Source of the DNA: Candidatus Microgenomates bacterium
GTDB lineage: Bacteria > Patescibacteriota > Microgenomatia > UBA1400 > UBA12108
Length of the DNA: 64,000 nt
Direction: 5' to 3'
NCBI GenBank assembly: GCA_003576945.1
Contig: QEVC01000001.1
Location: 26,129-90,128 of the forward strand
Positions 42,434-45,316 of the stretch are shown here, in pieces. Position 1 is the first letter of the stretch. Every line of letters begins with the position of its first letter. The notes under the pieces are model-generated. The model saw nothing but the letters and a program-made list of their open reading frames with translations. It did no database searches and had not been told where the DNA came from. Both the position numbers and the translations under genes were made by a program.

Positions 42434-45316
42434 CTAGAAACCAGGTAGTTTGAGTATATCAGCTGCAAACAAGCGTAGAAGTGATACTGAGAAAATAACT
42501 AGTAAGAGACCAGCTATGCCAGCGGTAAAGAGTTCGCGACCAGATTGTACTTGTTTAGAATCACCACTACTTGTTATGAGACGAATAACACCTGTTAACA
42601 TCACTATGAGTGATATACCGCCAGAAATACCAACCAAGAAGCGAAGTAGGGTCGTAATAAAGGCGCGATATTCGTAGGGGAGGCAGCCGAGAGCGGTGGC
42701 GAGACTACCCTCACCGCAAGTTGTGGGGAAGAAGCCGGCTTGACGACCTGATGACGATTGCTCAGAAGTAGTAGTGGTTTGTGGGTCTGTCGCAGCTGAT
42801 GGCGTATCTGGGAGATCTGTGGGAGTGTAACCACTCTTGGTAATACTGTTATAGACTGCGAGGGCTACAGCGAAGCTACCTGGTCGTTGGAAAGGTTGAG
42901 GAGCGCAAGCAGTGCGGTCGGCACAGTAAAGTAAGTACATGTTGTCATGCTTGCTGTTAATGTAGCTGGTTGGATAAGGATCATCTTCTCCCTCAAATAT
43001 TCGTGGGCACCCATTATAAGGAATAGGATATGGATATCCGACCTGACAGTTACTATTGCCACCACCGTTGTAGCGGGATAGGGCGGTGATTGCATCTTCG
43101 GCACTACCAATATTTCCACCAACCTTGCCTTTGAGGTGTTCTCCAGCATAAGTAGCAGTATCAAGTAATGTTTTGAATACCTTGCCTCCGGCATCTGGTT
43201 CTGGCGTCCCGAGCTTGCGACCAGATACTAAAGAGGCATCGGGGTTGTTAGCGCCTTCGACGAAGTGAATACCAGCCAGGATCTCGCAGGGCACACCTGT
43301 TTCTTTTTCGGCACTAGCGTAGGTAGCCATTAGCTCTTCGGTTAGATTATTTTTAATGTATGTATCAAAGTATGATTGACCTTTTGCACTTGGTGATTCG
43401 TATTCAGATCCTGCGATGAGCTCCCCAAAGAGTTTGCCATCGCAAACTGCGTTTGGATCGAGACTGTTTTGACCAGCTTCGTCACAGCCCACACGCATGC
43501 TGAGTGCGTACTCTTCGACTGTTGTGTCGAGCTGGCTAGAGAACATGGGATCGGCGCAAGTCAAAAAGCCCCAGTTGCGGCGAGTATTGCTAGGAGCGGA
43601 TCCTGAACGCCCATATAGTAGATCTGCTTCGTCATCGACCGTGATACTTAAATCATCATTAAAGTCTTTTACAGCTTCAAGATCAGTTAAAGTATCTCGA
43701 GAATCGTAGAAACCTTGTCTGATTTCTTTGATTGATTGTCCCATGGCTTCGGGGATAGTAATTAGGTGGTATTTTACCTGCTCGACCTCGTCGATTTTGT
43801 TGCCTTCGCCCCAGCCAATGAAAGCGAGTTGTAGTAGCCAGGAGAGACTGAGTTCGGGATAGGACGCCCCCTTGTCTTTGGTGAGCGTGGGCTGAAGCTT
43901 GTAGTTGGGGCAGTTTTTTTGTGGCCCAAGTTTTTCGTCAGGATCGAGATAATCAATCCACTGGCGAAAATATTTCCAGTTAGACCAAGGAATATAGTCA
44001 AAACACCCACCCTTTTGTTCTTCATAAAGTTTTTGGTGAATAAAACTGGGGACGCCGTTGATACTGGCGACGCTTGCAAACCGGATGAGGGGGTTAACCG
44101 CAGCGAGGTTTCTAAATATTTTCATGGCTTGATCGAGGGGATAGGTCATAAAGAGTTCGTCGATTGCGCCGTTAAACGCTTGGGAGATTGAGGTGTCGTA
44201 GTATAGGCCACGACGGATACCCACGATCATAAAATCAGGGACCCAACACTTATCAGGATTTTTGGGACAACAGACGTTCCAAACACAGATGCTGGGGCCT
44301 ACGAACCCTTGACGGAATGAGGGTGGGTAAAGCGGAGCTGACATGAGATCGATATACCATTGATCGGGGGTGATTTTAGTGGCTTCTTTACTTACCTCTT
44401 TACAAATCGCAACCTGAGTTTCGCCAAGACCTTTTAGGAGATCGTAGTTGCCGGGGTTCATATACATATCATCGAGCATTTCGATCAATCCTATAGCGCC
44501 GACTGAAATGTTATCTGGGAGCTCTTGTTCAATCTCGCCGAGTGTTTTGGTTCCTTGTGTAGGAGTGTCTGGGTTTAGATCATGATCAATGCCAACTTGA
44601 TATCCCCAATCAACCCAACCGAGAGGCCACTCTCCAGTTTGATTAAGAGTAGCTTTGGTTTGTTTGGCTCGTTTAACCACTACGATCTTGCGTAAGGCCA
44701 CGTTACAAAACTCGCTGGTTAAATATTGTGATCCCCAAGATATGGCGTTGCTCGTTCCGATGTTTGCATAGGCTAAATCCTCGCTTTGATATTTGGGATA
44801 GATTGGTTTTTCGGCGGAGAAATCGGTCCCTTTAATAGTGCGACTGATGCTGGGGCGTTGCTTATAACTACACTTGCCCTTTGTCGTTCCGGAAAGTTCC
44901 GGATCGGGTTTGGCAGAACAACTACTATTGGGACCACTCTCGGCGGTGTAGACGACATCGTCTGTATCTCTAATGCAAATGTCTACCTCGCCTCCCTCAC
45001 ACGGATCGACCTCTTCGCCACTTTGATTATCGACCGCACAAACATAGTCACGACGATCGCCACCATCACATAACATATAGTTATTGTATTCTCGACTACG
45101 GTCGCGATTTTCGTAGATTTTGAGGAATGGAGGTCGAATGTATTTATAGAGAGGGAAAAATTGTTCAAAGTGGTATTCTTTGTCGGGATTACCTTCGACC
45201 GAGAAGGGAGCAAAGGGCTCCGTCGCTTCGGTATCGTCGGCGCGGACGGGGAGGGGAATAGAAAGTAGAAAGTAGAAAGTAGAAAGTAGAACAGAGATAA
45301 TTTTGACCACTCTCAT
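42434..45316 (-). CDS. Large secreted/surface protein (about 860-aa ectodomain) fused to a C-terminal two-TM 'LPGF' module
   Basis: Signal peptide MRVVKIISVLLSTFYFLLSIPLPVRA. The C-terminus LLRFLVGISGGISLIVMLTGVIRLITSSGDSKQVQSGRELFTAGIAGLLLVIFSVSLLRLFAADILKLPGF parallels the 138-aa protein at 53252-53668. Confidence 0.5.
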   Translation of the reverse strand: MRVVKIISVLLSTFYFLLSIPLPVRADDTEATEPFAPFSVEGNPDKEYHFEQFFPLYKYIRPPFLKIYENRDRSREYNNYMLCDGGDRRDYVCAVDNQSGEEVDPCEGGEVDICIRDTDDVVYTAESGPNSSCSAKPDPELSGTTKGKCSYKQRPSISRTIKGTDFSAEKPIYPKYQSEDLAYANIGTSNAISWGSQYLTSEFCNVALRKIVVVKRAKQTKATLNQTGEWPLGWVDWGYQVGIDHDLNPDTPTQGTKTLGEIEQELPDNISVGAIGLIEMLDDMYMNPGNYDLLKGLGETQVAICKEVSKEATKITPDQWYIDLMSAPLYPPSFRQGFVGPSICVWNVCCPKNPDKCWVPDFMIVGIRRGLYYDTSISQAFNGAIDELFMTYPLDQAMKIFRNLAAVNPLIRFASVASINGVPSFIHQKLYEEQKGGCFDYIPWSNWKYFRQWIDYLDPDEKLGPQKNCPNYKLQPTLTKDKGASYPELSLSWLLQLAFIGWGEGNKIDEVEQVKYHLITIPEAMGQSIKEIRQGFYDSRDTLTDLEAVKDFNDDLSITVDDEADLLYGRSGSAPSNTRRNWGFLTCADPMFSSQLDTTVEEYALSMRVGCDEAGQNSLDPNAVCDGKLFGELIAGSEYESPSAKGQSYFDTYIKNNLTEELMATYASAEKETGVPCEILAGIHFVEGANNPDASLVSGRKLGTPEPDAGGKVFKTLLDTATYAGEHLKGKVGGNIGSAEDAITALSRYNGGGNSNCQVGYPYPIPYNGCPRIFEGEDDPYPTSYINSKHDNMYLLYCADRTACAPQPFQRPGSFAVALAVYNSITKSGYTPTDLPDTPSAATDPQTTTTSEQSSSGRQAGFFPTTCGEGSLATALGCLPYEYRAFITTLLRFLVGISGGISLIVMLTGVIRLITSSGDSKQVQSGRELFTAGIAGLLLVIFSVSLLRLFAADILKLPGF
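45258..45292. repeat. Tandem heptamer (AGTAGAA)x4-5 inside the signal-peptide coding region of the 960-aa gene
   Basis: Seen directly. It encodes FYFLLS-type hydrophobic residues. Confidence 0.5.

Follow-up and report, generated by a model that had tools for sequence, protein, structure and literature searches.

A predicted VirB2-like pilin module, alone and fused to a large ectodomain, in the chromosome of a Microgenomates bacterium

Two reading frames with a common C-terminal module

The window analyzed here is a stretch of 64,000 nucleotides from an uncultured, ultrasmall Candidatus Microgenomates bacterium (contig QEVC01000001.1); it is chromosomal, with dnaA, dnaN, yidC and a class I tRNA synthetase gene, and it contains two open reading frames (ORFs) whose products end in the same module. 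The larger ORF (42434..45316, minus strand) encodes a 960-amino-acid (aa) protein with a signal peptide, a Cys-rich ectodomain, a predicted lysozyme-like domain, a Pro/Thr-rich linker and a C-terminal, LPGF-type pilin module of a type IV secretion system (T4SS). The smaller ORF (53252..53668, minus strand), divergent from a SpoIID gene, encodes a 138-aa stand-alone LPGF-type pilin in which a 37-residue leader is followed by the module alone. The 960-aa protein is 100% identical to “hypothetical protein DPW11_02440” from a Candidatus Microgenomates metagenome-assembled genome (MAG).

Residues 867-960 of the larger protein align with residues 44-137 of the smaller one without a single gap, at 48/94 identities (51%, with 76% positives) and an E value of 1e-33 in BLASTP with composition-based statistics. 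The similarity already sets in upstream of the helices, with two conserved Cys residues (CGEGSLATALGC in the 960-aa and CGDTAVDTALGC in the 138-aa protein), and from there covers two hydrophobic helices and a polar loop up to the LPGF motif. A hidden Markov model (HMM) of 270 modules scores 131 and 150 bits on the 960-aa and 138-aa ORFs, compared with 24-41 bits on the eight other pilin ORFs, and a six-frame search of the window with this HMM yields no match beyond these ten pilin ORFs. The initial annotation had proposed that one two-helix LPGF module is used both alone and behind a large ectodomain, which the 138-aa and 960-aa proteins bear out at a level well beyond generic hydrophobicity. 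Some details require correction. The GGD...KGKELFT loop ascribed to both proteins reads TSSGDSKQVQSGRELFT in the 960-aa copy; the LPGF terminus holds for the 960-aa protein, while the 138-aa protein ends in LPGFN, one residue later; and the 138-aa product, described as a free secreted protein, is instead the precursor of a pilin, made up of a leader plus two membrane helices.

In the 960-aa protein, the module occupies residues 864-960 (42437..42727, minus strand) and consists of a Cys867/Cys878 loop, a helix (883-915), the polar loop SSGDSKQVQSGRE, a second helix (920-954) and the terminal LPGF. An AlphaFold2 (AF2) model of the protein ends in these two helices, preceded by short strands that hold both Cys residues. 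Hydropathy analysis places the corresponding segments at 885-915 and 926-958 in the 960-aa protein and at 63-95 and 105-135 in the 138-aa protein, both of which also have N-terminal hydrophobic leaders. Of 42 orthologues of the 960-aa protein, 37 match Pfam family PF18895 (best E 8.3e-8), as do 89/100 wider relatives (best E 4.8e-23). Nine of the 960-aa orthologues have a precomputed PF18895 assignment, and one stand-alone relative of the 138-aa protein is assigned to PF04956 (TrbC/VirB2). In addition, all ten window pilins align as a single two-helix hairpin with a common G-G-D/N...K loop. Because of these family matches, the common hairpin alignment and the two-helix end of the AF2 model, we identify the module, at the level of sequence, as a VirB2-like T4SS pilin domain (PF18895) of a distinct subtype, in agreement with the pilin-type character first proposed for it. 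Compared with VirB2-type pilins, the subtype adds a Cys-x10-Cys loop ahead of helix 1 and an invariant (L/I)PGF at the C-terminus or at most three residues from it. The module is conserved more strongly than the remainder of the 960-aa protein.

Several other identities were considered and rejected. A PGF-CTERM/archaeosortase or LPXTG/sortase signal does not fit, since LPGF follows the helices at the very end of the protein, with no helix and basic tail behind it; 93/98 representatives carrying PGF near the end have 0-3 residues after LPGF, and no NCBIfam sorting-domain model matches. It is likewise not a pilin of the type IV pilus or type II secretion system: the protein starts with an ordinary signal peptide instead of a class III signal, and its pilin-like part, a hairpin of two helices, comes at the C-terminus instead of being a single N-terminal helix. 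The Pam pili of a preprint on a “novel pilus system in CPR” (candidate phyla radiation), with Ig-like donor-strand exchange, are unrelated.

Searching 1.84 billion representatives with a profile built on the two modules of the window retrieved 7871 proteins at E<=1e-3; 5030 of these reach E<=1e-10 and 21 reach E<=1e-30. The module thus defines a real and very large family. Among the best 150 representatives, the module lies at the extreme C-terminus in nearly all, the Cys pair is present in 128/145, and PGF or PG[LI] occurs near the end of 112 proteins. These representatives are 111-962 aa long (median 282 aa), and most carry an N-terminal extension. In 105 cases the N-terminal part is 100 aa or longer; these parts are Cys-rich (median 3.5%) and form 76 groups without mutual BLAST similarity. 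With the exception of fn3 in two proteins, Pfam recognizes no domain in them. Since most of the best 150 representatives carry such extensions, the fusion of an ectodomain to the LPGF pilin subtype is common, the extension being the usual state, and the 138-aa protein is a minimal, cargo-free form of the subtype. Consequently, the initial claim of an undescribed fusion architecture stands only in part: the architecture is absent from the papers on Patescibacteria T4SSs (PMC12102498, PMC10633639, PMC12857230), but it is not singular.

We also note a set of “poly-pilins” (P0230, of 820 aa, and P0218, P0220, P0234, P0252 and P0317) with 2-8 tandem T4SS pilin modules per protein, often one LPGF-type module together with several plain ones.

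Gene order at the two pilin slots

The window carries a Gram-positive-type T4SS as published for Patescibacteria, including its pilin array. In this group the T4SS lies near dnaA and has 2-11 VirB2-like pilin genes per array, above all in Microgenomatia (PMC12102498), and the array is essential in Southlakia epibionticum (PMC10633639; see also the review PMC12857230). On the minus strand of the window, we find a VirB4-type ATPase (27606..29540; P-loop_TraG at E 1.7e-28, AAA_10, and a sub-threshold CagE_TrbE_VirB match at E 0.0019, 18.7 bits vs 21), a PrgI (VirB3-like) domain protein (30502..31554; PF12666, E 7.6e-7) and a 962-aa CHAP-domain protein (32199..35087; CHAP at E 1.4e-5, 25.9 bits vs a cut-off of 26), which is probably the wall hydrolase of the T4SS locus. 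A 502-aa polytopic membrane protein (38619..40127, minus strand) has no Pfam match; we label it VirB6-like solely because of where it lies and how many hydrophobic segments it has.

The 960-aa gene is the last of an eight-gene pilin array with conserved synteny. The array includes six generic T4SS pilins of 117, 114, 131, 120, 111 and 100 aa (45667..47877, minus strand), the “GG-NWITAGGDKGK” proteins, all of which match PF18895, 4/6 above the Pfam cut-off. A 95-aa T4SS pilin (45313..45600, minus strand) then shares 4 bases with the beginning of the 960-aa gene, and its homologue (69-73% identity) stands directly ahead of the fusion gene in loci L001, L002 and L006-L008 of other genomes. Directly downstream of the fusion gene, with a 35-base overlap, lies the gene of its conserved partner, a 184-aa bitopic protein (p184; 41914..42468, minus strand), whose homologue is followed by that of the 502-aa protein in L001, L002, L006 and L008. 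Divergent from the array is a gene for a sigma factor of the extracytoplasmic function (ECF) type (47915..48454, plus strand; Sigma70_r2, r4_2), found in the same place in L001, L002, L024 and L026. We refer to this arrangement as slot 1: an ECF sigma factor in divergent orientation, then plain pilins, followed by a ~95-aa pilin overlapping or abutting a fusion of 913-960 aa, a ~180-aa bitopic protein and the protein in the VirB6 position. The order is alike in the window, L001, L002, L006 and L008, and T4SS genes such as VirB4 accompany the array in the same order in L001, L002, L006, L008, L024 and L026. The eight plain pilins of the window (45313-47877 and 52857-53249) match PF18895 more strongly than both LPGF proteins, 5/8 of them above the curated cut-off.

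Other features of slot 1 and its surroundings were observed. In L007 (3416-6285), the 960-aa homologue is split into two ORFs with a break near 4495-4600, indicating a frameshift, a pseudogene or an assembly error. In the window (40142-42468, minus strand), a gene for an AAA_14/DUF4143 ATPase (40705-41841) lies between two 54%-identical p184 paralogues (41914-42468 and 40142-40807); related loci have one p184 copy and no ATPase, and the arrangement in the window suggests that p184 was duplicated locally and a gene inserted. The sigma factor is followed by two small membrane ORFs of 76 and 108 aa (47915-48987 with the sigma factor, plus strand), possibly an anti-sigma pair. A 1176-aa ORF on the opposite strand within the T4SS locus (35058-38588, plus strand) has no Pfam, NCBIfam or PHROG match; L001 and L024-L026 have counterparts of 1093-1175 aa in the equivalent location. 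Between the pilin array and mevalonate/isoprenoid genes, a 120-aa PIN_3-domain protein and an overlapping 90-aa upstream ORF (48984-49599, minus strand) have the look of a VapBC-type toxin-antitoxin pair. Finally, GC skew is positive from position 1 to ~60 kb and changes sign near 60 kb; dnaA/dnaN lie at 24.9-27.6 kb, so the two do not coincide.

The 138-aa pilin occupies a second slot. For the scan of other genomes, the two-sequence module alignment served as query, the broader module alignment being too diverse. In slot 2, present in the window and 14 other loci, the genes for a bacterial-PH-domain and a SpoIID-domain protein lie on one strand, and divergent from them come the LPGF-type pilin, a plain pilin and then uppS. 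In the window, these are a 569-aa coiled-coil and SpoIID-domain protein (53639..55348, plus strand; SpoIID at E 6.5e-13), whose divergent adjacency to the LPGF pilin is kept in the 14 other loci, and a 130-aa generic T4SS pilin downstream (52857..53249, minus strand; PF18895 at E 3.2e-10, above the Pfam cut-off), whose homologue follows the LPGF pilin in L009-L016, L018, L020 and L021. The SpoIID neighbor is a second link between wall-remodeling enzymes and LPGF pilins. We note that the bacterial-PH-domain membrane protein (55367-56035, plus strand) is, with the SpoIID gene, a conserved neighbor in the 14 other loci.

In other genomes, slot 2 holds the same module fused to unrelated ectodomains, in proteins of 135-653 aa. 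The LPGF pilin measures 135-145 aa in seven loci and 189-194 aa in three; single loci encode versions of 231 aa (L019, which may include the downstream pilin), 329 aa (L021), 476 aa (L005), 553 aa (L004) and 653 aa (L003). L017 (Beckwithbacteria), with a 314-aa LPGF-type pilin, has no SpoIID homologue in the locus and was excluded from the count. This variable cargo fits a host-contact or display function better than a housekeeping one. The named genomes with module loci belong to Woesebacteria, Beckwithbacteria, Shapirobacteria and Collierbacteria, all Microgenomatia. Public MAG records titled “uncultured Pseudomonadales bacterium” (L006, L007, L009, L010, L013-L016 and L019-L021) carry a typical Microgenomatia locus, and their titles appear to be wrong.

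The ectodomain in fused and unfused forms

The 960-aa protein belongs to a family of 81-93 clusters at 30-79% identity, all annotated as hypothetical; 81 full-length homologue clusters measure 918-977 aa. The protein has 24 Cys residues, an N-terminal signal peptide and a Pro/Thr/Ser-rich linker ahead of the module. The signal peptide (residues 1-26, MRVVKIISVLLSTFYFLLSIPLPVRA|DD; 45239..45316, minus strand) contains a hydrophobic segment at 1-24, its cleavage site being placed by a V-R-A motif. It is followed by the N-terminal ectodomain region (residues 27-625; 43442..45238, minus strand), with invariant TGEWPLGWVDWGY, PSFRQG and ICVW..CCP and many invariant Cys. This region is essentially confined to the 960-aa protein family and has no Pfam, NCBIfam, PHROG or PDB-sequence match; an AF2 run on these residues with a 13-sequence alignment gave a pLDDT (model confidence) of 39, too low to use. 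Similarly, no domain could be assigned when the whole ectodomain was compared with PDB sequences (as a single sequence and as two profiles), Pfam, NCBIfam and PHROGs.

Structural comparison, in turn, points to a lysozyme/lytic-transglycosylase-like domain at residues ~640-830 (42827..43399, minus strand). Structure-level relatives named for this domain are SltB1, Slt70, MltC/D/E, phiKZ gp144, the type VI secretion effector Tse3 and FlgJ, as well as EtgA, an enzyme of a type III secretion system, and a Tn916-like conjugation hydrolase. When the whole model was compared with PDB and BFVD by Foldseek, the transglycosylase matches were weak but concordant, e.g., the PRD1 transglycosylase. The domain has a candidate catalytic residue, Glu687, in LAGIHF(V/E)E; both Glu687 and Glu678 are invariant in a 15-sequence alignment, and Glu687 ends helix 677-688 of the AF2 model. 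Its motif A(L/I)S(R/N)(Y/F)NGGGNSNCQ contains A(L/I)S(R/N)(Y/F)NGGG, which resembles the AYNAG motif of SLT domains. On the basis of the model, residues ~640-830 likely adopt a lysozyme-like fold with putative catalytic activity. An adhesin-like ectodomain, as first suggested, finds no support here; this predicted fold is the sole recognizable part of the ectodomain. Between this domain and the module, residues 831-863 (42728..42826, minus strand) form a low-complexity Pro/Thr/Ser-rich linker (pLDDT <50 at 845-863), the length and sequence of which vary among homologues.

When 94 members of the 960-aa family were sorted by architecture with local HMMs, 77 combined the N-terminal region, the lytic-transglycosylase-like domain and the pilin module. 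In 4/94 members (P0076, P0078, P0079 and P0217), a different domain of ~180 aa, with a classical-looking LAIWIHESGASNY motif and no Pfam match, stands between the N-terminal region and the pilin module. Five of the 94 are complete 729-780-aa proteins that end directly after the lytic-transglycosylase-like domain, without a pilin module, and two (P0355 and P0356) have the N-terminal region and the alternative domain, again without the module. The remaining members are fragments.

The unfused versions of 778-780 aa at L024:8001-10337, L025:8001-10337 and L026:3104-5446 have the signal peptide, the N-terminal region and the lytic-transglycosylase-like domain, without the linker. Their slot in L024-L026 is identical to that of the fusion, after a ~95-aa pilin and before a ~175-aa protein, and no separate module gene follows the unfused ectodomain gene in these loci. 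Since unfused forms hold the same slot, the ectodomain family is tied to the pilin array independently of fusion, and covalent anchoring is not obligatory.

A possible role at the secretion pilus

The conserved order of slot 1 identifies the 960-aa protein as a conserved component of the chromosomal T4SS in Microgenomates bacteria. Homology, family membership, synteny and the range of architectures are shown above; building on them, we favor reading the fusion as a minor, cargo-carrying pilin by which a wall-cutting domain would be positioned on the T4SS pilus or at it, a proposal that may as readily fail as hold. In the known pathway, VirB2 pilins stay in the membrane until they are drawn, together with lipid, into the pilus; the wall is cut by VirB1, and the tip has VirB5 as its cap (PMC12624023). 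In the fusion, the signal peptide would export the 830-residue ectodomain and the pilin hairpin would sit in the membrane with both ends outside, as in the VirB2 precursor; because of the N-terminal signal peptide, the ectodomain and LPGF would lie outside and the loop inside. The T4SS would then recognize the module as a pilin and handle the fusion together with the eight plain pilins. As the 830-residue cargo appears too bulky for more than a minor subunit, the fusion would be present in few copies, at the start, the tip or the base of the pilus. There, the lysozyme-like domain would be held on the flexible Pro/Thr linker and cleave wall where the pilus crosses it. The target may be either the cell's own wall (a VirB1-like role) or that of the host (a piercing or effector-like role). 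The 138-aa protein would be the same subtype minus its cargo, and since slot 2 in other genomes holds unrelated Cys-rich cargo, the subtype may be a general carrier for extracellular domains.

A number of observations weigh against this reading. The two window modules score only 14.6 and 21.3 bits with PF18895 at a cut-off of 26.6, and the Foldseek match of the whole 960-aa model to the Aeropyrum conjugation pilus (8dfu) is weak (template-modeling score 0.63 over 72 columns, probability 0.60, E 9.2). The lysozyme-like fold comes from a single AF2 model; the isolated domain has no Pfam match up to E 10, its profile retrieves nothing relevant from PDB sequences, and hhalign against the catalytic domain of E. 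coli Slt70 gives no signal (probability 0.2). The main function could also lie in the ~600 ectodomain residues to which no fold is assigned. The covalent link to the pilin module is frequent and not obligatory, the module being dispensable for some lineages; a CHAP hydrolase is already encoded in the locus besides the fusion; and a T4SS pilus has not yet been visualized in Patescibacteria (PMC12857230).

A serious alternative, possible though in our view not the probable one, is that the module is a membrane anchor only. The unpolymerized hairpin would keep the ectodomain beside the T4SS, bound for example to the VirB6- or VirB3-like parts, and the lysozyme-like domain would open the cell's own wall as VirB1 and PrgK do. 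The bulk of the ectodomain indeed speaks against regular packing in a filament, and the good conservation of the 960-aa family (38-79% identity, many invariant residues) is more like that of an enzyme than that of a variable adhesin. Wall hydrolases are a requirement of Gram-positive T4SSs, VirB1 itself being a lytic transglycosylase (PMC12624023); most VirB2-bearing Patescibacteria genomes have no detectable VirB1 (PMC12102498), and a lysozyme-like domain visible at the structural level only could be the missing one. However, that need may already be served by the CHAP hydrolase of the locus, a single transmembrane helix would suffice for anchoring, and the module keeps the pilin loop motif, a conservation beyond what a plain anchor needs. 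The 76 unrelated groups of Cys-rich cargo on related modules, moreover, look like surface display and not like housekeeping.

An improbable variant casts the fusion as a specialized effector, with the pilin module as a handle for extraction by the T4SS; the ectodomain, brought to the host envelope or into it, would act as a toxin or an enzyme that opens the host wall. The T4SS is essential for epibiotic growth in the cultured relative, where no relaxase or coupling protein was recognized and the authors suggest protein export or another role (PMC10633639), and the large diversity of cargo resembles polymorphic effector systems. Yet no immunity-like gene was identified adjacent to the fusion gene, the conserved neighbor p184 accompanies fused and unfused forms alike, and no known T4SS substrate is a pilin fusion; with the subunit at the pilus tip, this explanation would overlap with that of a cargo-carrying pilin. 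Last, the notion of two unrelated membrane tails sharing mere hydrophobic composition, to which the hydrophobic-rich regions and the Pfam scores below the family cut-off might lend themselves, is practically eliminated by the gap-free identity at an E value that already includes composition correction, by polar, Cys, Gly and Pro positions invariant in hundreds of proteins, by the module HMM scores and by the 5030 clusters.

Comparison with known systems places the cargo-carrying pilin among several partial parallels. VirB2/TrbC/TraA pilins and the Patescibacteria arrays (PMC10633639, PMC12102498) have in common with the window a leader, a two-helix hairpin with a short polar loop and a match to the family HMM, and the arrays also share tandem genes beside VirB4, VirB3-like and VirB6-like genes near dnaA. 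Known VirB2-type pilins, however, are ~100-185 aa long without an extra domain, as are the six essential pilins of Southlakia (~125-185 aa), while in the present case this domain forms the C-terminus of proteins as long as 960 aa. VirB1 of Agrobacterium and PrgK/TcpG are likewise peptidoglycan hydrolases encoded at T4SS loci, with VirB1 acting where machine and pilus cross the wall, and a lysozyme-superfamily fold is predicted here as well; in contrast to these, the window domain has no SLT sequence match, lies within an 830-residue ectodomain and is covalently joined to a pilin domain. The tip proteins VirB5/TraC/CagL resemble the fusion in gene position (between the pilin genes and the gene in the VirB6 position) and proposed role only: VirB5 is a helical protein of ~220 aa and not a pilin, and no VirB5/TraC sequence or fold similarity of the 960-aa protein was found. 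The unfused ectodomain forms would, as VirB5, be soluble exported proteins.

Outside T4SSs, the type IVb minor pilins CofB and TcpB combine a pilin domain with bulky extra domains and, in few copies, initiate assembly and are displayed at the tip. They are similar in joining a pilin to a bulky domain, but the pilin fold is unrelated (a single N-terminal helix with a class III signal), the machine is different, and the cargo is C-terminal to the pilin domain, whereas that of the window fusion is N-terminal. Evolved VgrG/PAAR proteins of type VI secretion are alike in being filament subunits that carry an enzymatic domain, often a peptidoglycan hydrolase; they differ in secretion system and folds, and for the window fusion delivery would be no more than a possibility.

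Previously known are the T4SS, its pilin arrays and the Pfam family. In the literature we searched, no VirB2-type subtype is described as the C-terminal carrier of large, diverse ectodomains, and neither a conserved 960-aa member with a lysozyme-like domain nor the two fixed slots or fused and unfused pairs are reported. Adhesins were not detected in Patescibacteria genomes surveyed for T4SS genes (PMC12102498). In sum, the fusion provides a Rosetta-stone link that ties an anonymous family of 830-residue secreted proteins to the pilus. Tentatively, and with considerable doubt, one may go further: Microgenomatia of the candidate phyla radiation may have a class of cargo-carrying VirB2 pilins, a dedicated subtype with the Cys loop and terminal LPGF, serving as tip or initiating subunits of the T4SS pilus and displaying interchangeable, fast-evolving Cys-rich ectodomains, in which case these fusions would replace the missing VirB5 and adhesins, determine host contact and open the host wall. 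If true, one conserved cargo would be a wall-cutting enzyme that gives the T4SS, an essential conduit, passage through the host wall. Epibiotic life of the sole genetically tractable Patescibacterium requires both the T4SS and its pilin array. No adhesin or VirB5-like tip has been found for this machine; a large pilin subtype with cargo, a lysozyme-like cargo at a fixed T4SS position and the variable cargo of slot 2 are testable candidates for the end of the system that contacts the host or breaches its wall.

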